From an uncultured euryarchaeote (lineage in GTDB: Archaea; Thermoplasmatota; Poseidoniia; Poseidoniales; Poseidoniaceae), in the NCBI GenBank assembly GCA_937899865.1, contig CALBRH010000060.1:1-64000 (forward strand): a DNA stretch of 64,000 bases, read 5' to 3'. Position numbers and translations under genes: made by a program. The notes under the pieces were generated by a model. It was not told the origin of the DNA and searched no databases. It worked only from the letters and a program-made list of their open reading frames with translations. Positions 530 through 16,810 of the stretch are shown here, piece after piece (within the stretch, counting starts at the first letter, position 1; each line of letters starts with the position of its first letter).

Positions 530-680
530 AGTTAAGGTATAATGGACATGTAGATTCATGCCCCGCCTATAGAATATTTATCGCTATATAGTGCTAAGTA
601 TCAAAATATAGTTTCCATGCATGTTGATAGTATAACTGTGACCGTTAGTCATGGATACCTAAAATATAGGAGTGACTAAA

Positions 681-2159: not shown

Positions 2160-2201
2160 TACAAAATAAATCATATTTTGTCCCCAAAACTTGAGATTAT
2201 G

Positions 2202-2223
2202 CTCGGGGGTTTCGGCCCCCGAG
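2202..2223. terminator. GC-rich hairpin between convergent genes
   Basis: CTCGGGGGT-TTCG-GCCCCCGAG: 9-bp stem with a UUCG loop when read on the + strand. Confidence 0.55.
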
Positions 2224-2256
2224 TATACTCATTTTACCTATTATTGCTAAACAATG

Positions 2257-3339
2257 TTAAGAAGCAATGTTAGTGACTCTCGAATCGAGGAAATTCTGAA
2301 TAGCATTGTATGCCCCTTCAACCCCATTATCGAAGATTATTGTTGGTGATTCAATGTTAGCCGATAATAGTGCAGCGTCTAAATCATCTACAGTGATTTT
2401 GCGCTTATTCAGCATTGCAACATTGGCATAGGCTTTGCTCGCTAGTACTGCATTAATCTCCTGCTCAACTTGCCCAGGTTCTGGAATGCACAAAGATGGA
2501 AGTCCTAACACACCAACTTCGCCGAGTAGTTGACTTCCCGCGGTTTGATAAATTAAATCACAACTAAGTAAATCATCAATAAAACCCTGATTGGAAATTG
2601 GGCAAGAAATGACATCTTCTGGTATTTCTTCTGGTTTGTGACCGTATAATTTTACTTTCAAACCGCGTTTTCTGGCATGATCGACTATTGCATCAAAATG
2701 ACAAAGTACGCTTTTTCTCATGTAAGCAACAGCATGGGTGCCTTGTGGCTGCCATGCGCCAGGGAAAAACTGCGGCCTAAGCATAGGTCCAACAAGATGC
2801 ACATCATCTTTTTTTGGCTCTAAATTAAAGCCCTTTGAAATAACGCTCAAAGCAGGCCTTGGGGTGAAGATTTTGCACAATAACCTTACTGGAAAAAGTC
2901 GTGCTCGTTGGCTTATTGACAACCTATCAGCAAGTTTTGTGTCAAGTGAGAAACGTTGGCTGTTGAAGGAAATTATTGGTTTATCGAGCTTTTTTGCTGC
3001 TCTGGCAAATGTCGGTTCAAAATCTGAGATTAAAGCATCGGGCTGATAATGTTGTAATTGCTTTATACAATCCTTGACTCTATTACGATGGCCTTTGATG
3101 AATTTAGCAGTGGCATAGGCAGTGCCAAAGTAAGATATTCCTCGTTTTCCCAGTACAAATCTTGGGGTTTCTAGATAAGTCACTGATTCAGCTCCGTAAC
3201 GTTTCTCTAACAAATCTACAGCATCGCCACAAGTAAAGAATTGAATCTTGTGACCGGCTTCAATCAGCCGGTCTGCTAAGCCGATAGCACGGGTAGTATG
3301 TCCCCTGCCTTCACCTGCTAGAGCATAGGCGATATTCAT
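2257..3339 (-). CDS. Glycosyltransferase, MJ1255-like (GT-B fold, related to GT28)
   Basis: N-terminal YALAGEGRGHTTRA; PDALISDFEP; C-terminal TAGSQLLGE..PEPGQVEQEINA; ATGA overlap with the upstream phosphoesterase. Confidence 0.8.
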   Translation of the reverse strand: MNIAYALAGEGRGHTTRAIGLADRLIEAGHKIQFFTCGDAVDLLEKRYGAESVTYLETPRFVLGKRGISYFGTAYATAKFIKGHRNRVKDCIKQLQHYQPDALISDFEPTFARAAKKLDKPIISFNSQRFSLDTKLADRLSISQRARLFPVRLLCKIFTPRPALSVISKGFNLEPKKDDVHLVGPMLRPQFFPGAWQPQGTHAVAYMRKSVLCHFDAIVDHARKRGLKVKLYGHKPEEIPEDVISCPISNQGFIDDLLSCDLIYQTAGSQLLGEVGVLGLPSLCIPEPGQVEQEINAVLASKAYANVAMLNKRKITVDDLDAALLSANIESPTIIFDNGVEGAYNAIQNFLDSRVTNIAS

Positions 3340-4184
3340 ACAATCACCTCTGCAGCACGCTCCATTTTTGCCTCTAATTCGTCGAATTCAAGACTAAATT
3401 CTGCTTCGAAAGATTGCTGGTTGCTGGCACTTTGTTTCGCTCTTTCTCTCAGTAGTGAAATTGTTGATATCTTAGGCGAATACTCCAAGATTTCCATGGT
3501 TCCATCCATCGCTTCTGCAATTGCAGTACAAGATTCTAGCCAATCTCCATCATTCCAATATTCCACGCCGTTTTTTACTTGGAATTCTGCTTTGTGAATA
3601 TGCCCACATACAACTCCATCATAACCGAGTCTAGCAGCTTCTCGTGTTACAGTGTTAACGTAATTTTTGAATGTCTTGGAGTTTCTTTGCATCGCCCTTC
3701 TGGCAGCGGTTGCTAATGACCAATTGGGTAATTTCAGCAATCTCCTTATCCAAGCAATGGGACGATTTATTTTCATTAATAGCTGAACGCTAAAATGGCC
3801 TAAGTGGCATAGCCAGCGATGATTTTTGATAAATAAGTCAAATTCGTCGCCGTGTATTACCCAAAGATTTCGGCCATCTGCGGTAGTATGTTCAGCCTGT
3901 TTTATTATTTCTATACCGTGAATTTTTGTTGAGCACCAATCGCGAAATGCCTCATCATGATTGCCGGGTATGTAGTAAATCTTCGTGCCTTTATTGGCTT
4001 TTGAAATTAGATTTTGAATTATTAGATCTTCAGTTTCTGTCCAATGCCACTTCTTGCCTTTGCACCAGTGGTCAACAATGTCGCCAACAAGATAGATTTT
4101 CTCTGCGTCATTTGATTGTAAAAAGGCCAACAACTTATTGCTTTGAACGCCTTTAAGTCCAAGATGGCAATCTGAAATGAACAA
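3336..4184 (-). CDS. plcP: Metallophosphoesterase of the PlcP/LpxH2 (UDP-2,3-diacylglucosamine hydrolase-like) family
   Basis: Motifs ISDCHLG, LVGDIVD, IPGNHDE, IHGDEFD, CGHIH, NDGDWLESCTA. The conserved HYRTLFISD extends upstream of the called TTG, so the true start may be CTG 4214. Confidence 0.8.
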   Translation of the reverse strand: MFISDCHLGLKGVQSNKLLAFLQSNDAEKIYLVGDIVDHWCKGKKWHWTETEDLIIQNLISKANKGTKIYYIPGNHDEAFRDWCSTKIHGIEIIKQAEHTTADGRNLWVIHGDEFDLFIKNHRWLCHLGHFSVQLLMKINRPIAWIRRLLKLPNWSLATAARRAMQRNSKTFKNYVNTVTREAARLGYDGVVCGHIHKAEFQVKNGVEYWNDGDWLESCTAIAEAMDGTMEILEYSPKISTISLLRERAKQSASNQQSFEAEFSLEFDELEAKMERAAEVIV

Positions 4185-4296
4185 TGTTCGATAGTGTGTG
4201 ACCTCTTGTAACAGAAATAGCGCCCCGATTGGGCTAGTCGAGGAGAATACTATATCTCACCCCATAGAAAGTAAATCGTAGTATATAAGATATATA

Positions 4297-5412
4297 TCAA
4301 CCAAATCTTCCTGAAATATACCTCGCAGTCAATTCTTTTGAGGGGTCACCAAAGATTTTCGAGGTCTTGTCAAACTCAACTAGTCTACCTAGGTACATGA
4401 AACCGGTATAGTCACTCACACGTTGAGCTTGACTCATAGAATGAGTAACAATTACCACTGTGAAATGTTTTTTCAGTTCTAAAATTAATTCTTCAATTTT
4501 TGCGGTAGCAATAGGATCTAATGCTGAACAAGGTTCGTCCATAAGAATCACTTCAGGTTCAACTGCAATTGTTCTAGCAATACAAAGTCGTTGTTGTTGT
4601 CCGCCAGATAGACTGGTTCCCAACTCGTGAAGTCGGTCGTTTACTTCGTCCCAAATTGCCGCCCGTCGCAACGACTCTTCGACTATTTTATCCAACTCCC
4701 TCCTACTTGGAGTGTAGTGAAGTCTAACGCCGTATGCGACGTTATCGTAAATTGATTTAGGGAATGGGTTTGGCTTTTGAAATACCATACCAACTCTTCG
4801 TCGGATAGTAACCAAATCTGCACCGCGCCCCATTATTTCCTCGCCGTCGAGTTCGATTGAACCATCCACTTTACAAATAGGGATTAGATCATTCATTCGG
4901 TTTAAACAACGCAATAAAGTAGACTTACCGCAACCTGAAGGACCGATTAAAGCTGTCACTGAGTTACGTTTGAATGGGATGGATACATTGTAAATCGCTT
5001 GGGCGTTACCATAGTGTAAATCCAAGTCCCGAATCCACATATGAGCATCGCCATCGATTTCTAAATCTCTGGTTGAATCTGGTATTTCTTCATGGATATC
5101 TGAATCATTGCTAATTTCATCCGGTAATGATGCTAAATATTCTTTGATGATTGTAGATTCCTCAAGATCTGCTTTGCCATCAACCTTAGACATTGAAGTT
5201 AAGATACCTCTGATTTGAGATTTTTTGGGCTGTTCCGAATCGCTAGAAAGCAGTTGTTTTAGTTGATCGAATAGTTGTTCCTCCTCGTCAGAAATTTCCC
5301 CGTCGGCCGCCATCAGCTCTTGCAGTGTCTCAAGTAAAGACTCGTGGGTATCACTAACCTCAGTCTCTTCAACGACTTCTTCATCTTCTGTTTTTTCTTG
5401 TTTTTTCGTCAT
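4297..5412 (-). CDS. pstB: Phosphate ABC transporter ATPase PstB with a ~120-aa acidic TerB-like N-terminal extension
   Basis: Walker [65 protein letters not shown]-terminus. Confidence 0.95.
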
Positions 5413-8400
5413 GTGCTTGAATACCTCCTAAAGTGTGCACGGAGTAAAATTGCTGCTGAGTTAACAATAACTAAAGTACCTAACAACACGATTGAAGCAC
5501 CAGCAGCTGCGACCTTAAAGCCTATTTTTGGCATATCTGTCCAGCGATATACTTGAACTGGTAATACGGTGTAAAATCCTCTATCATTAGAGTCTGGCCC
5601 GACATATTCTGCCGGATCTGCAGACATTGGGCCTCGGTCAGCCCATAATGGAATGTTTTGCAAGTGAGGCTCAATACCAGGGAACCAACTAGCAAATCCA
5701 TCTAACGATGGAGTATACTGATATGATACGTAAAAGAATGCGTCTGGTTCAGTAAATACTGAAGCAACTGCACCAACTAGGATAAGAGGCGCTGCCTCTC
5801 CCATAATTCGTGACATGGCTAAAATGGTCCCAGTCATCATACCAGGCATTGCGTGTGGCAATACGTGGTCTTTAGTCACCTGCCATTTGGTACAGCCTAA
5901 ACCAAATGCTGCATTTCGTAACGATGGTGGAACTGCCCTGAGTGCCTCTTGTGAAGAGATTACAATCGTAGGCATTGCCATCGTTGCCATTGTCATACCA
6001 GCGGTCATCACGGTTCCTCCTAACCCTAGACCAATTCCTCTATCAGTCAAAAAGAGGGCTAATCCAAATAACCCGAATACAATCGCTGGAACTCCAGCAA
6101 GGTTAGTAATGAGAGCTTGAATTCCTCTTCTGAACGAATTATTTGGCGCATACTCTTCTAGCCAAATTGCTGCGCCAATTGAAAGAGGAATAGCAAACAA
6201 CATCGTGTATCCAACAACATAGACGCTACCCCAAAATGCCGCCCTTAAACCCGCTTTATACGGTTCTGAGGACGTGTAGTCTGACCATACAAATGGAATG
6301 TGAATATTCATTGGAATGGTAAACAATGCTATCACCATGACCACTAGTGCTGCGGTCATCCATCCGTCTCGCCCCTTGATTACTAATCCTAATCGATCTT
6401 CCTGAATCTTGTTGGTTCTAGTCAATTGTAGTGCTGCAATTACCAACTTTTTAGCCCCGACAAATGACATCAATAATAGAACCGCCCCTACAACCCATCC
6501 TTCGATTAAAATCCATGAAAGGGCAATATACCAGACGATTACGTTCAACACCAACACCCCGAAATCTACCAGCCCGTCTGCTAAAGGAACATTTTCATCA
6601 GGACGCATCTTAATAATATCTGAAATTGCAGTGATTAGGGCGATGAAGCTCATCAAGGATACCGCACCACCAATTGTGAATGAGAACGGGACCAATAATA
6701 CTGGTTGGTTTTCATTAAATGTACTAATGAAAATTAACAATGCTCCGATGAAGATAAGTAACCTAATTAGAACACCAAATAATCTGCTTAATACTTCTGA
6801 AGAAAATGATAACCACGACCATGGTGTTTTCGTTCCAGTATCGAGTTCCTTTGAGCCTATTTTAATGAGTCCTGAACGTAGGGATAGCAGAACTCTATTT
6901 GGATATCTGACGACAAAAAACATCCCGATCAATCCCAGGTAAGCAAACATCGGCAGATAAGGGTCTCGTTCTTCATACATATCCAAGCCACTCTCAAGTC
7001 GATTTGAGGCTCCGCAATATTGCAGCCATGATAACTGGTCAAGATATCTGATTGTATCACACCATTCTTCGGAGTCCATTATTTGATTTGATACTAAAGT
7101 AGTGGCTTTATCGCAGTCAAAGTCTGCATATTGAGGGTCATTTTGTTTGTATGATTCTGAACATTTTATAGAATATAGGTCTGAAGTAATTTGCCAAACC
7201 ACAGGTATTGAAGAAATATTGGTTTTAGAATAATTAAACAATTTTCCTGCAGAAATCCCTTGCCCTTGAACCAAGTTAGCAATACCGTCTCCGTCTATGT
7301 CTCTGTCTTTTACTTCATCATGAACTCCATCGCCATCTGCATCGTTTACTGATATCCATTCACCTATTGACATTGGTTGGCCGCCGAACTCATATCGGCC
7401 AACCTCTGGACAATATTTTGGATGGCCGATTATTGGATTTTCGTCATTATCGCCATCAATATCAAGATCACAAACATCGATTGTTCCATCATTATCCAAA
7501 TCATCATCATCAATAAATCGGAATTGGAACCAATCTGCGGGAGAGCCGAGAGCAAAATCGCCGATCTCTCTGTATGAGGTTTCTAGAGCGTCATTAGCAG
7601 GACCTGATGTTTGAGAATAGGTAACAGTGTAATTCATTGTATGGTTGATATATAGCCAGTTTGTAGTTACCCCTCCTGACGGTTTTAGGGTTATATGTGA
7701 GTCTCTCTCAAAGTAATTCCATTCGCCTAAAAAGCCATTTGATAATGAAGGGGCAGCAATTCGGCTAGATGTGCTGAAATATGGGCCTGTTGGGTCATCC
7801 ACTAGGTTGACATACACTACATCGTGGCCTGTATTAGAAATAGTTACTCGGAATTCAGTTGACCGGGTTTTGGTAAAAATTGATGGTTGGATTTCATAGC
7901 CATCATCGTTTTTGAATTCTCCTACTACTGCCTCACCAGTCAAACCTGCCGATAGGATGTATGCTGATGTTTCAGCCTTAGTACAGAATTCTGGGGTAAA
8001 CGTTCCAATGAATTCTTGGGGCCGTAATATCTGTTCTGGAATTTGTTCCACATTTAGTGGGCGCCATTCTCTATCTGTTTGATTGTAAATCGAAGCAACT
8101 GTTATTTCTGAAAATTCGCCTATTCCAATTGCGCTTCTGTTGAGCCAAATATCCCCATCGCCGCGGAAAATTGGCGTTACTGGTGTATAATGTAGCCATA
8201 ATTTACCATCTTTGAAAGCGTGCGGGTAATCATCTGAAAAGTCTAGTACGCTGTTCAAGAATTCGTCGCCCTCTGCGGAATCCCAGCGTAGGCCTTTCCA
8301 TACCCATTGGCTTCCATCATCTGAATCGACCCAATAATCTCCCATCCCAGGAGTAGGTGCTTCTGGCCGCTTGAAGATGTTGATTCGCTCTTCTTCTCCG

Positions 8401-9101
8401 GTGCTGTATTCCTTAGTATCTTGACTAATTCCGGGCAATATATCCAGAACCTTCCATGGCTCAACAGGTTTGTAAGTATACTCTGCTAAGTCCTCATTAC
8501 AAAGCGCCCGCTCTAAGTCAGTGTCTAGATCCCATACAGATTGCCCATCTATGCTGGTGAATATATCTGTATCATTTTCTATACCAGTGAAAGCACCGTT
8601 AGAGAGTATTGGACTTGGGTTGTAATTGTCTCGAGTTGCAACATAGTGAGTCTCTTCCCATTTTGCCTCTATAGTGATATTCGACCGATCAATGCGCAAG
8701 TCTGCATCAAAGTATTCAACTGTTGCATCGCTAGGTACTGACAAACCAGACGGTATTTGGTCGGTTCTGTACTCTACTGTATTACCAGAACTATCTGACC
8801 ATCTTGTTATGCTGTATGCTTCCCAAGAAGGATTCCAACTTTCCGCTTTCCAAGAGAGTTGTGTTTGGGCAACTGGTTTACTGCCTTCTCTTATCCCATC
8901 AACTTCAATTTCTTGTTCAGGAACAAATGCCTCCTCTGTGATTTGTGTCAATAGAGTAACAAGAGCTAAACCGCAAACTAAAGCAATTGAAATAAACACG
9001 GATTTGCCAATTTTAGCGGTTGCATAACGGCGCTTTAGGGAGCGTTGTGGAAGCAGGGATGTGCCAAAAAGGCCATTGTAATCGCTCGGTCGTTCTTTCA
9101 A
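5409..9101 (-). CDS. pstA: Phosphate ABC transporter permease PstA, giant (1230 aa) with a large ectodomain and extra TM helices
   Basis: C-terminal core [58 protein letters not shown]; ATGA overlaps with pstC and pstB. Confidence 0.9.
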
Positions 9102-11557
9102 TCGTATTCCTCCCTAAAACGAGTCATTATCTTGTGTCCGACCATGTTTAATGATAATGTAATGACGAATAGGTATAATCCTACTGCGAATAATGAATAA
9201 TATGGTGTCGTACCAATCGGTAATTCGCCCCCGATTCGTTGAGCAATATATGCAGTCATTGTTTGAGCAGACCTAAACATGTTATCTGAGTAAACAGCTA
9301 ATGTCCCCACAGACAATGTCACGGCCATCGTCTCACCTATTGCTCTTGATAAAGCGAGAATAATTGATGCCAATATACCAGAGAGAGCTGATGGAATTGT
9401 TACCCTTGCCGTTGTTTCGGTGGGTGTTGCACCTAGAGCATAAGACGCCTGTCTCAAATTGTCTGGCACCGCTCTCAAAGCATCTTCAGATAATGAAGCA
9501 ATCAGGGGAGTAATCATTATTCCCACTACAATTGCTCCGTTTAGAGGATTGAATAGTTGGGGTTCTTGCGAAATCCACCCACGTTCAAGAAATGATGTGC
9601 CTATGTCAACCACTATTGGAGCGATGACTACGAAAGCAAAAAACCCGTAAACTACTGAGGGGATGCCTGCTAATAGTTCAAGGATCGGTTTGACAATGTT
9701 TGCAACTCTAGGGCTGGCATATTCTGACAAAAATATGGCTGTCCCAAGTCCTACGGGAATGGCTATAACCAATGCGCCTAATGCAACTTGCAAAGTTGTT
9801 TGCAGCAATGAATTTACCCCCATATGGAGGTTGGAATCTACAGTTACTAGGCCAACTGTTGTTATGTCTGTCTTCCACCATGTTTGCGTGAAAAATTCTC
9901 CTAGTGAACCATTGACTCGAGCAACTACATCCAAATACATCAACAGAATAGTTACTATCACTGCAATATTCATTGCTAGTCTACTATCTGAGTCAACGAT
10001 TGCAAACTTGTTACTACCGGATTGATTCCTAGAGTCATTGATTACTTTGGTAAACATTAACACTGCTACGCAAAGCGCAATGGTATGCCCTATTTGAATG
10101 AAATAAAAGTTTGTGAATGAGATGATAAGTGAGAATATCCCTAGAGTTAAAGTGGAATAGGGTAACTTTCCATCTAATTTCCAGCCAAAAAATGTCAATA
10201 TGAAGCTTAATGCAGAGACTAAAAGAATGATTGACAAACTAGGTGGAACTAACATAGACATGGTACTTATAGTTGCCAAAAATGCAAAATTTGTTCTTAA
10301 TACTGGCACTATCAAGTCTATTCGTTCAACTGGGATATTAACTAACCAGCGAGGAGAAAAAATTGTTAGTCCTACGACAAGGATGGTGATTACTCCTAAC
10401 AACAGACCAAAGTAATCTCTATCGGGAGTGTATGGGTTTGGATCGTAAGCATTGGGCAATCCATCACTGTCGATATCTTCGTCAATATTATTTGTTATAC
10501 CATCGCCATCGATATCATTATCCAGAAGTTTACCTGCTCCGTCAACTTGCTCATTTGCTACACCATCATTATCGTAATCAAACGGCAAATCCTTGATGTC
10601 CAGCTCCCTCAAATTATCCAGTAAGTCTTGATGTGAATTATTACCGCCTGTTGTGAAATCGGAGGTAAAAATGTACGAAGTCACCTCGTTTGAAAAATTA
10701 TATGATGCTGAACTAAAACGTGAAATTGATTCTCCTTGATAATCAAAAAATGAATACTGTTCAATGGTGAAACATCCGTTACTAGATTTCTCCACACCGC
10801 GGGTAACAAATTCATCCTCGAGTTGTTGGAGTATTGGTTGCCCTTCGTTATGGCATAACGTTACTTGATTGATATTTATTTCATCGTTCTTGTTGTATTC
10901 GGTGTTATTTTCATAATAAGGCAGCAGCACTTGATAATCTTCCATACTAAGTCTCGCACTATCATCACCAACCCAAACCGTCACCCACCATTCACGGGCA
11001 AGTTCAGGGTCTTGTTTGTGTAATATCAGAGCATTTTCATTATCTGCTATGTATTGTAATGGTATTTTTGGATACTCGTCATCCCAATGTTCCGGGTTTT
11101 GATCAAAGTATTCTGATAAATATGAACGATCTGAATCTAATCTTGGTCCAACGATTATTGTCCCATCAGCAAGTTGAAAAGCACTGCCTTCTCTATCGCT
11201 ATCGTCTGTATAGGTTTCGCTACTAGGGTCCCAACCGTAGGTATCTATCATTGGGTCTGATAGAACGACCATGTGTTCCATATCCCAATCAACTATACAA
11301 AAAGAATCAAGCCACAAAGGATCAGATATTTTCCCATCATCATATATCGCAGCATCTTTGATACTTGCTTTCAAATCTTCATCCCAATCCTGAGGCGGGG
11401 TGAACGAATCGGCACCGCAAGCAAACCCTCGATAGAATTTCGAACCGGATTCAAATAATACGAATACAATACCGGCAGTGATCATTACCACGGTAGCAGC
11501 AAGGGCAAATAGGACAATTCCTGGAGCGCTTTCTTCTATCCTGCCTCGCCAACGCAT
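9098..11557 (-). CDS. pstC: Phosphate ABC transporter permease PstC, enlarged (819 aa) with an ectodomain and extra TM helices
   Basis: Core IAIPVGLGTAIFLSEYA..ILELLAGIPSVVYGFFA..SEDALRAVP..SRAIGETMAV..SLFAVGLYLF. Confidence 0.92.
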   Translation of the reverse strand: MRWRGRIEESAPGIVLFALAATVVMITAGIVFVLFESGSKFYRGFACGADSFTPPQDWDEDLKASIKDAAIYDDGKISDPLWLDSFCIVDWDMEHMVVLSDPMIDTYGWDPSSETYTDDSDREGSAFQLADGTIIVGPRLDSDRSYLSEYFDQNPEHWDDEYPKIPLQYIADNENALILHKQDPELAREWWVTVWVGDDSARLSMEDYQVLLPYYENNTEYNKNDEININQVTLCHNEGQPILQQLEDEFVTRGVEKSSNGCFTIEQYSFFDYQGESISRFSSASYNFSNEVTSYIFTSDFTTGGNNSHQDLLDNLRELDIKDLPFDYDNDGVANEQVDGAGKLLDNDIDGDGITNNIDEDIDSDGLPNAYDPNPYTPDRDYFGLLLGVITILVVGLTIFSPRWLVNIPVERIDLIVPVLRTNFAFLATISTMSMLVPPSLSIILLVSALSFILTFFGWKLDGKLPYSTLTLGIFSLIISFTNFYFIQIGHTIALCVAVLMFTKVINDSRNQSGSNKFAIVDSDSRLAMNIAVIVTILLMYLDVVARVNGSLGEFFTQTWWKTDITTVGLVTVDSNLHMGVNSLLQTTLQVALGALVIAIPVGLGTAIFLSEYASPRVANIVKPILELLAGIPSVVYGFFAFVVIAPIVVDIGTSFLERGWISQEPQLFNPLNGAIVVGIMITPLIASLSEDALRAVPDNLRQASYALGATPTETTARVTIPSALSGILASIILALSRAIGETMAVTLSVGTLAVYSDNMFRSAQTMTAYIAQRIGGELPIGTTPYYSLFAVGLYLFVITLSLNMVGHKIMTRFREEYD

Positions 11558-11630
11558 GATTCATCCTCCAACATCCTGCGTTGTGTTGTGATGTCGTAAT
11601 GCTATCGGACTCTTTTATGTTCCTAAATAA

Positions 11631-11650
11631 ACTATATATTGCTATATAGT
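11631..11650. promoter_or_regulatory. Palindrome ACTATATA-TTGC-TATATAGT upstream of pstC (candidate operator or internal promoter)
   Basis: Perfect 8-4-8 inverted repeat in the pstS-pstC spacer; the same CTATAT/ATATAG core occurs in the other island spacers. Confidence 0.4.
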
Positions 11651-11656
11651 TGGGCC

Positions 11657-11687
11657 AAGTGGGAGGGGATTGCTCCCCTCCACACTT
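11657..11687 (-). terminator. Hairpin downstream of pstS (partial terminator or mRNA stabiliser)
   Basis: 8-bp GGAGGGGA/TCCCCTCC stem plus an AAGTG/CACTT extension; the loop reads GCAA (GNRA) on the - strand; ~30 nt after the pstS stop. Confidence 0.55.
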
Positions 11688-11715
11688 AGTTCGGAGGGTT
11701 TATGTTAGATATCAC

Positions 11716-14700
11716 TCAGCTAAAGTCGCCTTCAGCGGAAATTCTGCGCCACATCTCTTGCCATGTTGCGTCATCTAGTGGAACGTATCCTACTTCAGAA
11801 ATCTCAGCGGTTCCGTCTCCTGAGTAAGCCCAGGTTAGGAAAGCCGAAACTTCGTCCCAAACATCGTTGTTGACATTCATGAATAGTGGCCTAGATAGTG
11901 GTGCATATGATCCGTCTCTTACTGTGCCTGCATCTGGTATTACTGCAGTTTCGGTGGTGTCGCCCATACCATATACATGGTCGTTAGCAACGCCTGCGGC
12001 CGATAGAGTTGCTTGGTTTTCCGCATAGTATGCGAAGCCAAAGTAACCGATAGCAGTATCATCACCGTTTAGAGTGTTTACCAGTACATTGTCGTCAGAA
12101 GATTGAGTTCCTGCTCTGAATCCTTGGGATGCTTCGTCAAGTATTGACTCAAAGAAGTATTCGTAGGTGCCAGACGCTGCGTCTGGATAAGCAAGAACAA
12201 TTTCTGCGTCTGGACAGTTTGCGTTTAGCTCAGACCACTTATGGGTGCTGTCATCGTTGTCTCCGTTTGGTGTTACCGATGACATGTCAAGGCCTGCTGT
12301 AGTCAATTCTGCTGCAGTTTCAGCAGAGAAGATCCAGCGCAGTTGCGCAACTGTAAGTCCACCCATTTGTTGAATACACATATCAGCTGCGCCGCCTTTC
12401 TTGGTAACCACGGACAAACCGTCAACAGCAACTACAAGTTGGGTTACAGTGATTGAAGTGTCACCAACTGCGCACTCAACTTGTCCGTTTGCGTCAACGC
12501 CATCTTGTGTCTCTGTGGCCTTCCAGTCCCTAGACATGTCTCCAATGTCTACTTGGGAGCCCTTTGCTGAGTTAGCACAAACTCTACCTGCACCTGAGGA
12601 TGACCCACCGGATTCTACAGTGATTGTTGTATCGCCACAAATTTCGGTGTACGCTTCAGCCCAGGCTTCTGCAAGTGGTAGAACCGTTGAGGAACCTGCG
12701 ATTGAGATGCTTTGTGCGCCGCTACAGAATGCGTCGTCAAAGATATCTGAATTGCCGCCTGCGGTCATTCCCTTCAAGTATGCATATCTGCTGAGGAACA
12801 TCTGAGCTTCTTGGTTGTCGTTTAGGCTAACATATCCTACTTCTCCAACCTTGTCTTGGCCCATTTCAGTGAACAGTCCATACGCCATGAATGGTAGCGT
12901 GTTTTCAAGTGAAGCTGCATCGATTAGCAGATTCATAAACAGAGGTCTGGATAATGGGTTGTAAGAGCCGTCTCTAACTGTTGTTGCATCAGGAGCAACC
13001 ATGTTACCTGCATCATTTTGAACTGGAGCAGCAGTTAGTGTTGCTAGGTTCTCTTGGTAGTAAGCGTAGCCAAAGTAACCGATTGCGGTCTCGTCACCAA
13101 TTAGCGCATTAACTAGAACGTTGTCGTCACTGGATTGTTGGCCGGATCTGAATCCTTGTTCTGCTTCGTGTAGAATTGCTTCAAAGAAGTATTCGTAGGT
13201 ACCGGATGCTGCATCTGGGTATGCCAGATTAATTTCGGCATCTGGACAGTTTGCGGATAGTTCAGACCACTTGTGGGTGCTGTCATCGCCGTCTGCATTC
13301 GGAGTTACAGTTGACATGTCTAAACCTGCTGCAACCAATTCTGCTGCAGTTTCTGCGGAGAACATCCAGCGTAGTTGGTCAGGAGTTAGACCGCCCATTC
13401 CGTTTACACAGGTTTCAGCAGCGCCGCCCTTCTTCATTACAACGGATAGCCCATCAATTGCAACTTGGAATTGGGCAACATCTCTGCTGCTGTCACCAAC
13501 TAAACAGTCAAGAACGAAACCGTTTGCTTGTCGGTTTGCTTCGGTTGCCTTCCAGTCTCTGGACATGTCGCCGATGTCTACTGGTGTACCCTTGGCAGAG
13601 TTTGCACAAACTCTGCCTGCACCGGAGGATGAACCGCCGGATTCTACTGTAATTGTAACATCGCTACACTCTTCGGTGTATTGTTCTGCCCATGCCTCAG
13701 CAAGTGGTAGAACAGTGGAGGAACCTGCGATGCTGATTGAGCCTGCTGGACCGCAGATTACTGGTTGTGTTCCTGCTAGTCTTGCTTCCATAGTTGCCTG
13801 AATATCGGCTGGAATCGGGACATATCCTACTGAATTAACTAGTAGGTCGCCACCGTCTCCAAGACCAAACTTGAGGAATGGTACTGTGTTTGCAAGCGAT
13901 GCATCTTCAACAAGTAGGTTCATGAACAGAGGTCTTGATAGTGGGTTGTAGGTTCCATCGGCAACTGTTGAGCCACTTGGAGCAACCATGTTACCTGCAT
14001 CGTTCTTTACTGCAGCTGCAGTCAGAGTTGCTAGGTTCTCTTGGTAGTAAGCATAGCCGAAGTATCCGATAGCGGTCTCATCACCAATTAGCGCATTAAC
14101 TAGAACGTTGTCGTCACTGGATTGTTGTCCGGATCTGAATCCTTGCTCTGCTTCGTGTAGAATTGCTTCAAAGAAATACTCGTAAGTACCTGATGCTGCA
14201 TCTGGATATGCTAGATTAATTGCTGCGGATGGGCAATCGGAGGAGAGTTCACTCCATAGATGGGTTGAGTCATCATTATCACCGTTAGGAGTAACTGTAG
14301 ACATATCAAGGCCGGCAGCAGTTAGTTCGGCTGCAGTTTCTGCGGAGAACATCCAGCGTAGTTGGTCAGGGGTTAGACCGCCCATTCCGTTTACACAGGT
14401 TTCAGCAGCGCCACCTTTCTTCATAACGACTGAAAGGCCATCAAACGCAACTACGATTTGTCTTGCACTTCTTGAAGTGTCTCCAACTAGACAATCCATA
14501 GTGTAACCATCTTCGTCAATGGTTCTCTCGGTGTCTTTCCAATCCCTGGACATGTCACCAATGTCTACTGGTGTACCCTTAGCAGAGTTTGCACAAACTC
14601 TGCCTGCACCGGAGGATGATCCTCCAGATTCGACTGTGATGGTAACTCCCTCACAAGCCTCTGTGTAATATTCTGCCCATGCTTCTGCAAGAGGTAGAAC

Positions 14701-14940
14701 GGTAGATGACCCAGCGATGCTAATTGAGCCATCTGGGCCACAGACTACTGTTCCGACGTCAATTGTGTCGTCGGGTACAGTTTCATTTACAGTAGAATTA
14801 GTGCCGTCCCCTGGGGTAGTGACGGTGTCTGTGTTGTCGTCTTTATCATCGTCATCATTTCCTAGACATCCAGCCATGGCTGAGACCATCATAAGTAAGA
14901 TCAGTGTTATTGCTTTCATTTTGGTGCTTTGAGTTATCAT
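11716..14940 (-). CDS. pstS: Phosphate-binding lipoprotein with three tandem PstS domains
   Basis: Lipobox AMAGCLG; three copies of SISIAGSSTVLPLAEAWAE..VESGGSSSGAG..DIGDMSRDWK..YPDAASGTYEYF..IGYFG..YNPLSRPLFM..VGYV. Confidence 0.93.
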   Translation of the reverse strand: MITQSTKMKAITLILLMMVSAMAGCLGNDDDDKDDNTDTVTTPGDGTNSTVNETVPDDTIDVGTVVCGPDGSISIAGSSTVLPLAEAWAEYYTEACEGVTITVESGGSSSGAGRVCANSAKGTPVDIGDMSRDWKDTERTIDEDGYTMDCLVGDTSRSARQIVVAFDGLSVVMKKGGAAETCVNGMGGLTPDQLRWMFSAETAAELTAAGLDMSTVTPNGDNDDSTHLWSELSSDCPSAAINLAYPDAASGTYEYFFEAILHEAEQGFRSGQQSSDDNVLVNALIGDETAIGYFGYAYYQENLATLTAAAVKNDAGNMVAPSGSTVADGTYNPLSRPLFMNLLVEDASLANTVPFLKFGLGDGGDLLVNSVGYVPIPADIQATMEARLAGTQPVICGPAGSISIAGSSTVLPLAEAWAEQYTEECSDVTITVESGGSSSGAGRVCANSAKGTPVDIGDMSRDWKATEANRQANGFVLDCLVGDSSRDVAQFQVAIDGLSVVMKKGGAAETCVNGMGGLTPDQLRWMFSAETAAELVAAGLDMSTVTPNADGDDSTHKWSELSANCPDAEINLAYPDAASGTYEYFFEAILHEAEQGFRSGQQSSDDNVLVNALIGDETAIGYFGYAYYQENLATLTAAPVQNDAGNMVAPDATTVRDGSYNPLSRPLFMNLLIDAASLENTLPFMAYGLFTEMGQDKVGEVGYVSLNDNQEAQMFLSRYAYLKGMTAGGNSDIFDDAFCSGAQSISIAGSSTVLPLAEAWAEAYTEICGDTTITVESGGSSSGAGRVCANSAKGSQVDIGDMSRDWKATETQDGVDANGQVECAVGDTSITVTQLVVAVDGLSVVTKKGGAADMCIQQMGGLTVAQLRWIFSAETAAELTTAGLDMSSVTPNGDNDDSTHKWSELNANCPDAEIVLAYPDAASGTYEYFFESILDEASQGFRAGTQSSDDNVLVNTLNGDDTAIGYFGFAYYAENQATLSAAGVANDHVYGMGDTTETAVIPDAGTVRDGSYAPLSRPLFMNVNNDVWDEVSAFLTWAYSGDGTAEISEVGYVPLDDATWQEMWRRISAEGDFS

Positions 14941-15020: not shown

Positions 15021-15034
15021 ATATAGGTCTATAT
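15021..15034. promoter_or_regulatory. Inverted repeat ATATAG-GT-CTATAT between divergent pstS and AbrB-phoU
   Basis: Read directly in the sequence; preceded by ATATATTAATATAT. Confidence 0.4.
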
Positions 15035-15086
15035 ATAATTAGTGTGGCATGGGTATCTATCCGGAGTTATACGGAGGTGCGTTAAC

Positions 15087-16124
15087 ATGGAGATTTTAGG
15101 CAATATCGAATATCGAAAATTACAGGTTACCGGCGGTTCTACCTTCATTGTTAGCCTACCAAAGAAGTGGATAAAAAGTAACAATCTATCGTCTGGAGAT
15201 GTAGTGGGCGTTGAATGTTTAGCAAGCGGAGAGGTGCAAATAACCCCGCACGAAGTAAAACAAATCAGACGTAGTGTGTCTATTGACTTAAGCAAGTATC
15301 CAAAGAGTGCCCTTTATGATTACCTAATCGGAGCATATGTAAGCGGAGCTGATGTTATTAATGTCTCAATGAAAGAAGGAATCCCTATTCAACAAAAAAG
15401 AATCGTTAGGAGATTTTTAAGAGATACTAGGGGAATGGAAATCTCAGAGGATGAAGATAAAAAAATTTCAATCATTTCGTTACTGAATCCGAATGAATTG
15501 CCACTACAAACTAGTTTGAATCGGATGTATTTACTTGTAACAAGCCTAGTCGAAGATACACTAGGTGTGCTTTCGGGGGATGATCGAGACACTATTTCTG
15601 ATTATGAAGATAGGGAGCGACAAATTGATGCTAGACGCTTACTTATCGACCGGCAAGTTGCTATGGCTTTGCATTCGCCACAAATCGAAAGAGGTTTAGG
15701 TATTGATAGATACCAAGCGATGGAGCATGCAGTCATGGCTCATTACTTAGAAAGGATGGGTGACCACGCTCAAACCTTTGCTAGTTTAGTTGCTGATGAG
15801 CAAAACAACATTGAGTTTGAGGAAAATCAAATGCCAATGGCAGCGATACCGATATGGTTATCTTCATTAAGAGCAATTATTAGAAACACATACTCAAAAG
15901 ATATTTCTGTGTTAATCAAAGCAAAACAAGACCTGGCGAAAGCAACTATTGATTTAGAACAACATGAGAACGACTTAATGTCCTCGCGAGCACGAGCAAC
16001 TAGCGTTCTTTCTGAATTCAGGATTTCTGAAATCGTTAGGAGGTTATGTGGTTATAGTATAGACCTTACAGAGACTCTAATCAATATGCTTATTGCGGGA
16101 AAGACTGAGGCCTCTGATAAGTAG
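15087..16124 (+). CDS. Archaeal phosphate uptake regulator: AbrB-type N-terminal domain plus PhoU domains
   Basis: YRKLQVTGGSTFIVSLPKKW (AbrB/SpoVT-like); AHYLERMGDHA (PhoU repeat); ATG 15087 follows GGAGGTG. Confidence 0.85.
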   Translation: MEILGNIEYRKLQVTGGSTFIVSLPKKWIKSNNLSSGDVVGVECLASGEVQITPHEVKQIRRSVSIDLSKYPKSALYDYLIGAYVSGADVINVSMKEGIPIQQKRIVRRFLRDTRGMEISEDEDKKISIISLLNPNELPLQTSLNRMYLLVTSLVEDTLGVLSGDDRDTISDYEDRERQIDARRLLIDRQVAMALHSPQIERGLGIDRYQAMEHAVMAHYLERMGDHAQTFASLVADEQNNIEFEENQMPMAAIPIWLSSLRAIIRNTYSKDISVLIKAKQDLAKATIDLEQHENDLMSSRARATSVLSEFRISEIVRRLCGYSIDLTETLINMLIAGKTEASDK

Positions 16125-16126
16125 GT

Positions 16127-16810
16127 GTGAATATGGTGCCACCGATAAGAACAAACTTAGATAACCGAATGAATACGTTAAGATCAGCAATTTCTGAATT
16201 TTTTGATTCAATAATTTCATCATATAATCTAGCAATCAACGGAATAAAAATTTTCAATGAAGGAGACTTAAAAGAAATTTACAAGTTGAGAAAAAATGCG
16301 CAAAAACAAGCGGAATATCTCTCTCAAGATTTATTGTTAGTCCTAACCCTTAACCAGCCCCTGTTGCAAGATTTGAGAATCATTGCTTCATACCTTAGAG
16401 GAGTCGACGTAATTGAAAGGCTTGCCCGTCATGCAAGAGATATCGCGGATGCTCAGGCTCTATGGCACGATATTGAAGATACTGATACGCCTCTGCTATC
16501 CGAATTATCCTCACTTGGGCATGAGACGGTCGCTTTGATTGAAATAATGCGTGGTTGTTTAGTAGACCAAGAAGGGGTACCTGAAGAATTATTAAAAGAA
16601 AAGTGGATAACTATTTCCGAGTTATTTGGTAAAATATCAACTGAAATTCTTGAGGTTCAAGGTCAATCTATTGGCGGCCGCGAAGGTCGAATTTTGCTAA
16701 ACACTATGGCGAAAAGATTTGAACGCTCATCATATAACTTGATGAGGCTTGCAGATTTATGGCATTATGCGCTTGAAAACGAATGGATACATTTAGAATC
16801 GGTAGCATAA
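16127..16810 (+). CDS. phoU: PhoU family protein
   Basis: LTLNQPLLQDLRIIASYLRGVDVIERLARHARDIA and KRFERSSYNLMRLAD. Confidence 0.8.
   Translation: MNMVPPIRTNLDNRMNTLRSAISEFFDSIISSYNLAINGIKIFNEGDLKEIYKLRKNAQKQAEYLSQDLLLVLTLNQPLLQDLRIIASYLRGVDVIERLARHARDIADAQALWHDIEDTDTPLLSELSSLGHETVALIEIMRGCLVDQEGVPEELLKEKWITISELFGKISTEILEVQGQSIGGREGRILLNTMAKRFERSSYNLMRLADLWHYALENEWIHLESVA

Follow-up and report, generated by a model that had tools for sequence, protein, structure and literature searches.

The question raised by this locus is whether a planktonic archaeon carries genes for exchanging the phospholipids of its membrane for glycolipids when phosphate is scarce. That bacteria and phytoplankton make such a swap under phosphate stress is well established. 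The window, i.e. the whole stretch of 64 000 nucleotides that was analysed (positions 1 to 64,000 of contig CALBRH010000060.1, assembly GCA_937899865.1), originates from the genome of a Marine Group II archaeon of the order Poseidoniales (2.0 Mb in 65 contigs, completeness 91%). On its minus strand, directly after the phosphate-uptake operon pstSCAB, a metallophosphoesterase gene (hereafter esterase) is followed by a glycosyltransferase (GT) gene, and on balance we regard the two as a phosphate-stress lipid-remodelling module, a reading that we hold to be probable though far from certain. The pair consists of the following genes.

3336..4214, minus strand: putative PlcP-type (LpxH-like) metallophosphoesterase gene; 292 residues from CTG at 4214, alternatively 282 residues from TTG at 4184 (3336-4184)
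2257..3339, minus strand: probable GT-B glycosyltransferase gene (Glyco_trans_1_3, MJ1255-like); 360 residues from ATG

The esterase was assigned to the Pfam family Metallophos (E 7e-12), and its metallophosphoesterase motifs were complete and invariant in 37 aligned homologues: D5, H7, G34-D35, G74-N75-H76-D77, H111 and G194-H195-x-H197, as numbered from the TTG start (4184). Both LpxH models of NCBIfam scored well under their cut-offs (NF003743, 52 bits with a cut-off of 134; TIGR01854, 42 bits with a cut-off of 190), and identity to the LpxH of Escherichia coli was 24% over 175 residues, as compared with 44% over 248 gap-free residues to a homologue in Rhizobium lusitanum. Thousands of bacterial proteins, with Sphingomonadales in the lead, matched the esterase at E-values of about 1e-70 and at 43–48% identity. 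The 79 nearest bacterial loci, which were obtained from the best 80 matches in a scan of genome contigs, encoded homologues of 40–46% identity, and an Agt-type GT4 gene was located directly 3′ of the homologue in 43 of them, an arrangement also represented by Sphingomonas endolithica, in which the GT4 gene comes directly after the esterase homologue. The plcP-agt operon is known from marine bacteria (PMC4796936), and the validated PlcP phospholipases of Pseudomonas, Phaeobacter and Sinorhizobium have mutual identities of 46–47% (PMC8528852), so that the archaeal esterase, at 44%, is about as near to the PlcP group as the members of the group are to one another. Since the characterised PlcPs were outside the 80 best matches, this placement is based on their neighbours, on the published operon type and on the identity levels. 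LpxC (PF03331), the sole gene of the lipid A pathway searched for, was not found in the 91%-complete genome, when a control search matched four Gram-negative genomes. A PlcP-type rather than an LpxH-type identity is thus supported at the level of sequence, in keeping with the first-pass annotation, which had pointed out a full PlcP/LpxH2 motif set and had considered an LpxH role unlikely.

In the predicted structure of the esterase (predicted local distance difference test, pLDDT, 85), a helical cap at residues 114–186 formed the counterpart of the lipid-holding cap in LpxH, and the 25 best PDB matches were all LpxH structures (E about 1e-10, versus 1e-5 for Mre11/Vps29). The C-terminus (window 3336–3470) was modelled as a helix of approximately 45 residues (239–281, pLDDT 57–78), rich in Glu, Ser and Gln, which falls outside the region alignable with the Rhizobium homologue. 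LpxH, the closest solved fold, cuts the pyrophosphate bond of a lipid-linked sugar nucleotide, and this speaks for a different explanation, one of surface-glycan or polyprenol metabolism, in which the esterase would cut an intermediate linked to polyprenyl (dolichyl) diphosphate or phosphate, the GT would add sugar to a polyprenol carrier or a glycan, and the linkage to pst would be incidental. We consider this explanation unlikely; the esterase is far nearer to the PlcP group than to LpxH, and the partners of its bacterial relatives are diacylglycerol glycosyltransferases.

Neither a signal peptide nor a transmembrane helix was detected in the esterase (peak 19-residue hydropathy 0.70), and the same was true of the GT, so both proteins are expected to act inside the cell. 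The location bears on a catabolic explanation, according to which the esterase would degrade imported foreign phospholipids or lysolipids for phosphorus and the GT would dispose of, or store, the diacylglycerol, with the cell's own membrane left unreplaced. Poseidoniales are thought to degrade lipids (PMC6962369), and the linkage to phosphate genes suits scavenging equally well. Besides the cytoplasmic location, however, no lipid importer is encoded beside the pair, and the bacterial members of the family work on the membrane of the cell that makes them (PMC4796936; PMC8528852), and a catabolic role thereby appears quite unlikely to us.

The esterase tree comprised 16 archaeal and 79 bacterial sequences and was rooted on the LpxH of E. 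coli, which was placed on a very long branch. All 16 archaeal esterases formed one clade (Shimodaira–Hasegawa-like approximate likelihood ratio test, SH-aLRT, 98) among alphaproteobacterial sequences, with a weakly supported sister group (88). Because the archaeal copies are a single clade among bacterial sequences, the tree suggests that the gene was imported from bacteria; the donor was most likely, but not demonstrably, one of the Alphaproteobacteria, the bacterial sample having been picked by similarity to the query. At first the enzyme had been taken for a native archaeal counterpart of PlcP, when it now looks like a bacterial import occurring in one order only, in 16 of 201 genomes. The phylogeny against PlcP and LpxH that had been proposed as a check was accomplished in part: the esterase grouped with bacterial PlcP-type sequences and not with E. 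coli LpxH, and the characterised PlcPs are outside the tree.

The GT belonged to the Pfam family PF13528, Glyco_trans_1_3 (2.6e-36, 125.9 bits, cut-off 25). TIGR00661 (MJ1255/VC2487) was the best NCBIfam match, even if its 68 bits were under the cut-off of 195.9; Pfam Glyco_transf_4 scored 22 bits, under the cut-off of 28.5, and no similarity to the Agt of Sphingomonas was found by BLASTP (E 3.2). These results support the conclusion that the GT is not an Agt or GT4 enzyme, and the MJ1255-like, non-Agt character ascribed to it at first reading is upheld. In the predicted structure (pLDDT 91), the best Foldseek matches were GT1 enzymes. An exhaustive structural search ranked YojK (Z 27.2), the sterol 3-beta-glucosyltransferase UGT51 of yeast (Z 25.5) and MurG (Z 24.9) highest, as compared with Z of only 17–18 for GT4 structures such as PimA and WaaG. 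The model superposed on GT1/GT28 folds with root-mean-square deviations of 3.2–3.7 over 301–329 residues at 14–19% sequence identity, and no Glyco_trans_1_3 member was among the solved structures matching it.

Residues conserved in the GT included a nearly to fully invariant G11-R12-G13-H14 loop, with H14 nearly invariant, and invariant D106, E292 and Q293. The positions of the GH and of the Asp lined up with those in UGT109A1; from general knowledge of GT1 enzymes, we take H14 and D106 to be the His/Asp pair and E292-Q293 to be the donor motif. As far as the model goes, the GT is probably a GT1/GT28-like, inverting GT-B enzyme. Its nearest folds act on lipophilic acceptors (the sterol glucosyltransferase and MurG), and this was counted in favour of a lipid acceptor; the polyprenyl-linked acceptor of MurG, one of the top three fold matches, also favours the surface-glycan or polyprenol explanation.

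Relatives of the GT amounted to about 1,400 cluster representatives at E ≤0.001 and only 44 at E ≤1e-30. Close relatives were mostly from Poseidoniales, and by sequence the GT is a subfamily separate from TIGR00661 and composed chiefly of Poseidoniales sequences. Tandem GT paralogues without an esterase were present at locus L036 (4919–7059), on contigs of 1.2–1.9 Mb that also bear ftsZ and hisS. Further unpaired relatives had surroundings of bacterial appearance or were located on contigs whose open reading frames (ORFs) were for the most part unannotated. Two relatives of 34–37% identity (L135:4001-5074 and L136:4001-5050) were located on metagenome contigs of 116 kb and 33 kb, in which nearly all ORFs were unannotated and PHROGs matches were restricted to a DNA methyltransferase and a 5′-3′ exonuclease; these contigs may be viral, and in the GT tree the paired GTs from the family of the window had these two relatives as their sister group (support 83). 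Another GT-bearing record, L032 (GCA_002170365.2), is labelled ‘Flavobacteriales bacterium’, and its contig has the giant pstA, PstS and LTD genes of Poseidoniales type. A similar place was found in a genome of the window's order (also L035), and the label is probably mistaken. Directly 3′ of the GT in the second family of the order is a gene of the YdjM family (putative membrane-bound hydrolase; L032:7128-7691).

Both minus-strand ORFs of the window overlap by 4 nt, the stop codon of the esterase and the start codon of the GT sharing ATGA, as the first-pass annotation had stated. The two genes were adjacent in all 15 related loci, and 13 of these had a 4-nt overlap (ATGA, GTGA or TTGA), the remaining two having gaps of 2–3 nt. 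With the window included, 14 of the 16 copies, which come from two families, had the overlap, despite the changing start codon. The consistent adjacency and the retained overlap indicate that the pairing is not due to chance. The same four within-family groups were recovered in the esterase tree and in the GT tree; in the latter, the paired GTs occupied three places separated by weakly supported branches, so that the pairing may have arisen once or more than once.

The pair was detected in 16 of 201 Poseidoniales genomes, among them 9 of the 61 high-quality genomes and 3 of the 33 other genomes of the window's genus, and in 6 of 24 genera. It was absent from approximately 306 genomes searched in other families of the phylum, and is an accessory unit confined to Poseidoniales among the genomes searched. 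None of the 79 nearest bacterial PlcP-type loci contained this GT, so that the union of the esterase with Glyco_trans_1_3 is, as far as searched, specific to this archaeal order, and the distinct pairing anticipated earlier is borne out, 43 of the bacterial loci having Agt instead. A mis-binned bacterial contig was ruled out as a source of the pair, which several independent assemblies place between archaeal-type genes, on contigs as long as 227 kb. Downstream of the pair, the following element was recognised.

2192..2231, minus strand: stem-loop directly 3′ of the GT stop; -23.2 kcal/mol, z -3.7, matched by 0 of 200 shuffles; by folding prediction, a likely transcript end

The tight coupling of the esterase and the GT is also in accordance with de novo glycolipid synthesis, in which the esterase would dephosphorylate an intermediate of phosphatidate or archaetidate type, or a CDP-activated one, to supply the GT with its acceptor, and would thereby represent a missing step of archaeal glycolipid synthesis. 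A review from 2022 regards the phosphate headgroup as ‘likely eliminated’ in this synthesis, and the word glycosyltransferase is absent from its text (PMC9385802); that the step has no assigned gene is our own reading of the review. Characterised relatives of the esterase, however, hydrolyse finished phospholipids (PMC8528852), and a pathway present in no more than 16 of the 201 Poseidoniales genomes cannot be a core one. De novo synthesis, which we hold to be very unlikely, differs from remodelling in substrate only, with less phosphorus in lipids either way.

The connection of the pair to phosphate uptake starts from its position in the window, where it is preceded by the following pst genes, beyond which genes of putative regulators point away from pstS.

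4297..14940, minus strand: pstS-pstC-pstA-pstB, ‘giant’ form, directly upstream of the esterase; Pfam PBP_like_2 (three), BPD_transp_1 (two) and ABC_tran
11716-14940, minus strand: pstS, with three fused PBP domains
9098-11557, minus strand: pstC, enlarged by a big ectodomain insert
5409-9101, minus strand: pstA, enlarged by a big ectodomain insert
4297-5412, minus strand: pstB
15042..16810, plus strand: AbrB/MazE-PhoU fusion gene (15042-16124) and a further PhoU gene, both transcribed away from pstS; Pfam MazE_antitoxin with PhoU, and PhoU

The distance from pstB to the esterase is 82–112 nt, depending on the esterase start (4214 or 4184). The codon at 4214 is an in-frame CTG, in place of which the orthologues have TTG, GTG, ATG or CTG, and the ten residues gained from it (..HYRT, before LFISD) are conserved out to bacterial homologues. 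A start codon at the same position in the orthologues and the conservation of the added residues make 4214 a reasonable start, and by this comparison the CTG appears likelier than the TTG at 4184. Gene callers limited to ATG, GTG and TTG would cut ten residues off the esterase.

The order pstB-esterase-GT was observed in the window and in 6 of the 15 related loci, and the full pst gene order of the window recurred in six related loci; two further copies of the pair were at most 4 kb away from pst or phoU genes. A pstC match was obtained in 53 of the 201 Poseidoniales genomes, and high-affinity phosphate uptake is accordingly in itself accessory in the order. Two forms of the pst operon were distinguished, an ordinary one with a pstC of about 450 residues and a ‘giant’ one with an ectodomain of about 330 residues. 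The pair was present in 12 of the 19 genomes with giant pst, in none of the 34 with ordinary pstC only, and in 4 of the 148 with no pstC match, which is a pattern rather than a statistical test, since the genomes are related and the counts not phylogenetically independent. This co-occurrence with one type of pst operon argues against surface-glycan or polyprenol metabolism. The AbrB-PhoU and PhoU arrangement beside pstS was also present in genomes G030 and G020; in G062, the AbrB-PhoU gene alone was visible, the examined stretch beginning at a contig end. The AbrB-PhoU and PhoU proteins are candidate regulators of the island.

Short repeats were recognised in the spacers of the island and in those of related loci.

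4215..4296, minus strand: pstB-esterase spacer with a promoter-like AT-rich stretch; ATATAG at 4250-4255, ATATAC at 4281-4286, ATTTAC at 4271-4276
11632..11650, minus strand: TATAGCAATATATAG direct repeat 5′ of pstC, the sole TATAG-N5-TATAG in the 2.0-Mb genome
Window 567-669, 11632-11650 and 15021-15034; L138:700-760; L139:5440-5500; L141:690-740: (T/A)ATAG arrays

In the non-coding DNA of the window's genome, ATATAG/CTATAT was rare, with 79 matches (0.45 per kb), of which this island's four spacers account for ten. An ATATAG among these ten is 36 nt 5′ of the CTG start of the esterase, and weaker copies in the same spacer are spaced by about 10 nt when read on the minus strand. In four related genomes, words of (T/A)ATAG type recurred with a 10-nt period 5′ of both pstS and pstC, and the promoters of orthologous esterases contained two or three of them, likewise 10 nt apart. 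Several Poseidoniaceae genomes had as many as five words in an array, with arrays 5′ of pstS, of pstC and of the AbrB-PhoU gene; in the spacer between pstS2 and a pilin gene, the period was about 20 nt instead of 10 nt.

Genome-wide, WATAG-N5-WATAG had four matches in G062, two of which were the pstS and esterase promoters, even though the pair is 130 kb from pst in that genome; five matches in G030, two being again the pstS and esterase promoters; and two in G020, one being the esterase promoter. The pst-type promoter repeat is thus retained when the pair is unlinked from pst, which is a further point against an incidental linkage of the kind expected from surface-glycan or polyprenol metabolism. 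The remaining sites were within genes, in a convergent thiolase spacer, or 5′ of genes for a TPR protein, a protein of unknown function, purA and TFB. Two congeneric genomes shared an identical TATAGACGAATATAG in the convergent spacer beside the thiolase gene (L142:1691-1705 and L143:3072-3086), conserved and not in promoter position. A regular-expression search for at least three repeats in the window's genome returned nothing coherent, and plain CTATAG counts were uninformative. On the basis of their sequence and position, the (T/A)ATAG arrays are a candidate archaeal Pho box; the 10-nt-periodic form of the repeat and the cross-genome counts are new here, and it is a guess that the AbrB-PhoU protein binds the TATAG repeats. 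Together with the adjacency of the pair to pst on the same strand and its co-occurrence with giant pst, the shared promoter repeat, which tells more than the co-occurrence, strengthens the link to phosphate uptake that had been drawn initially from the position directly after pstSCAB.

The nature of the lipid substrate was approached through the gene content of the genome. Geranylgeranylglyceryl phosphate (GGGP) synthase is encoded inside the window, and the genome encodes a CDP-archaeol synthase and two CDP-alcohol phosphatidyltransferases, from which it follows that phospholipids are made. The genome also encodes a GpsA-like glycerol 3-phosphate (G3P) dehydrogenase and three acyltransferases of PlsC type, a family matched in no archaeal control genome.

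C54:29071-29457, C63:31202-31627, C38:4990-5400, C63:8824-9294 (G000): PlsC-type acyltransferases (three) and GpsA-like G3P dehydrogenase

Glycerol 1-phosphate (G1P) dehydrogenase and PlsY were searched for in the window's genome and neither was found. With GpsA-like and PlsC-type genes present and G1P dehydrogenase not found, the lipids are possibly G3P-based or mixed; for Marine Group II, a mixed lipid gene set of this kind has been reported and G3P-based or mixed lipids have been suggested (PMC6962369). A phospholipase C of bacterial derivation would suit such lipids better than classical G1P-based ether lipids. The first-pass annotation, whose outline is upheld, had assumed ether lipids as the substrate, which these genes do not require.

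The remodelling that we favour would proceed as follows. The esterase, a predicted cytoplasmic and membrane-peripheral phospholipase C of the PlcP family, would strip the phospho-head group off glycerophospholipids of the cell itself; phosphorus would thereby be released, and what is left would be a glycerol lipid core bearing a free hydroxyl, whether the lipid be of ester, ether or mixed type. The co-translated GT would then move a sugar from a nucleotide sugar onto the hydroxyl of the core, giving a phosphorus-free glycolipid. In Poseidoniales, a bacterial esterase gene would thus have been joined to a GT of another family than Agt, and the pair would travel with a giant, presumably high-capacity pst operon and probably be under the same regulator, acting through the TATAG repeats with their 10-bp period. 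What the analysis shows is the structure of the genes, their families and folds, the retained coupling, the distribution and the common repeat; that the esterase is active as a phospholipase C, that the GT has a lipid as its acceptor, that scarce phosphate induces the pair and which type of lipid serves as substrate is what we infer from them. A more specific form of the remodelling, which is possible but doubtful, is that phosphorus-limited Marine Group II ecotypes have G3P-based phospholipids of bacterial handedness, either ester or mixed ether/ester, and for this reason cleavable by the imported phospholipase C, that the GT replaces these under phosphorus stress with beta-glycosyl glycerolipids, and that an archaeal Pho regulon operates through AbrB-PhoU and the TATAG repeats.

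Several points weigh against remodelling. The bacterial sequences compared are neighbours of the characterised PlcPs and not those proteins themselves (SMc00171, MED193_17359, PB7211_983 and PA3219), and the start codon of the esterase, CTG or TTG, is unsettled. An esterase-less GT paralogue adjoins glycan genes, i.e. those of a PMT_2-type transferase and a polysaccharide flippase; on account of such unpaired paralogues, the GT family, for which no role in lipid synthesis is known, is not tied to lipid cores, and they also speak for surface-glycan or polyprenol metabolism. As to regulation, the esterase spacer of the window has only one perfect ATATAG, the rest of its array being degenerate, and the other genome-wide matches of WATAG-N5-WATAG are not beside phosphate genes; because these sites adjoin no recognisable phosphate gene, a wider regulon is not claimed. 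Four pair-bearing genomes had no pstC match, and the relatedness of the genomes applies to the whole co-occurrence pattern. Finally, it is not known which lipids Marine Group II makes, and none of the polar lipids familiar from archaea were detected in waters that this group dominates (PMC6962369).

Should the more specific form of the remodelling be correct, the pair would provide the first gene-level handle on the lipids of the abundant, uncultured Marine Group II, and some of the phosphorus-free glycolipids in oligotrophic surface waters would be of archaeal origin. To our knowledge, no genes have been assigned to the lipid shifts of archaea under nutrient limitation. Shifts of archaeal lipids toward glycolipids under such limitation have been described at the phenotype level only (PMC4302986). 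Marine Group II is among the most abundant planktonic archaea, uncultured and with unknown membrane lipids (PMC6962369), and our literature search retrieved no description of PlcP or of lipid remodelling in Marine Group II or Poseidoniales, which agrees with the initial impression that such a pathway had not been described in planktonic archaea. The pair consists of two clonable genes with products assayable on ester, ether and mixed lipids, and it opens three questions to assay: phosphorus-saving remodelling in archaea, the handedness and linkage of the lipids, and the function of MJ1255-like GTs. The patchy pair and the special pst operon mark an island of phosphate adaptation, for which SAR11 and Prochlorococcus have comparable examples.

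Among known systems, LpxH (UDP-2,3-diacylglucosamine diphosphatase of lipid A synthesis) resembles the esterase in fold, helical cap and metal ligands, and differs from it by an identity of only 24%, by NCBIfam scores far under the cut-offs and by the genome in which no LpxC was found. The GT1/GT28 enzymes (YojK/YjiC of Bacillus subtilis, UGT51 of yeast and MurG of E. coli) are alike to the GT in fold over the whole length (Z 24–27), in the N-terminal G-x-G-x-G-H loop with its His, in the Asp after strand 4 and in the E-Q pair of the donor domain, whereas sequence identity is only 14–19%. The uncharacterised MJ1255/VC2487 family (TIGR00661), which occurs in Methanocaldococcus jannaschii and Methanosarcina acetivorans, is of the same Pfam family, but the GT, at 68 bits versus the cut-off of 196, belongs to a separate subfamily. 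The bacterial Pho box (PhoB direct repeats with an 11-bp period) likewise has repeats about one helical turn apart 5′ of pstS, pstC and remodelling genes, whereas the candidate box described here is of (T/A)ATAG type with a 10-nt period, in an archaeal host and with no PhoB in the island.

The closest counterpart is the bacterial PlcP-Agt operon of Sinorhizobium meliloti, Phaeobacter sp. MED193, SAR11 HTCC7211 and Pseudomonas aeruginosa (PA3219/PA3218). Here the host is archaeal, the GT is a Glyco_trans_1_3 enzyme, probably inverting, in place of the retaining GT4 enzyme Agt, the candidate regulator is AbrB-PhoU with no PhoBR, and the substrate may not be a diacyl lipid. In both systems, however, an LpxH-like esterase gene is followed directly by a GT gene, and both are connected with the phosphate regulon and have direct repeats in the promoter; gene order and logic are the same.

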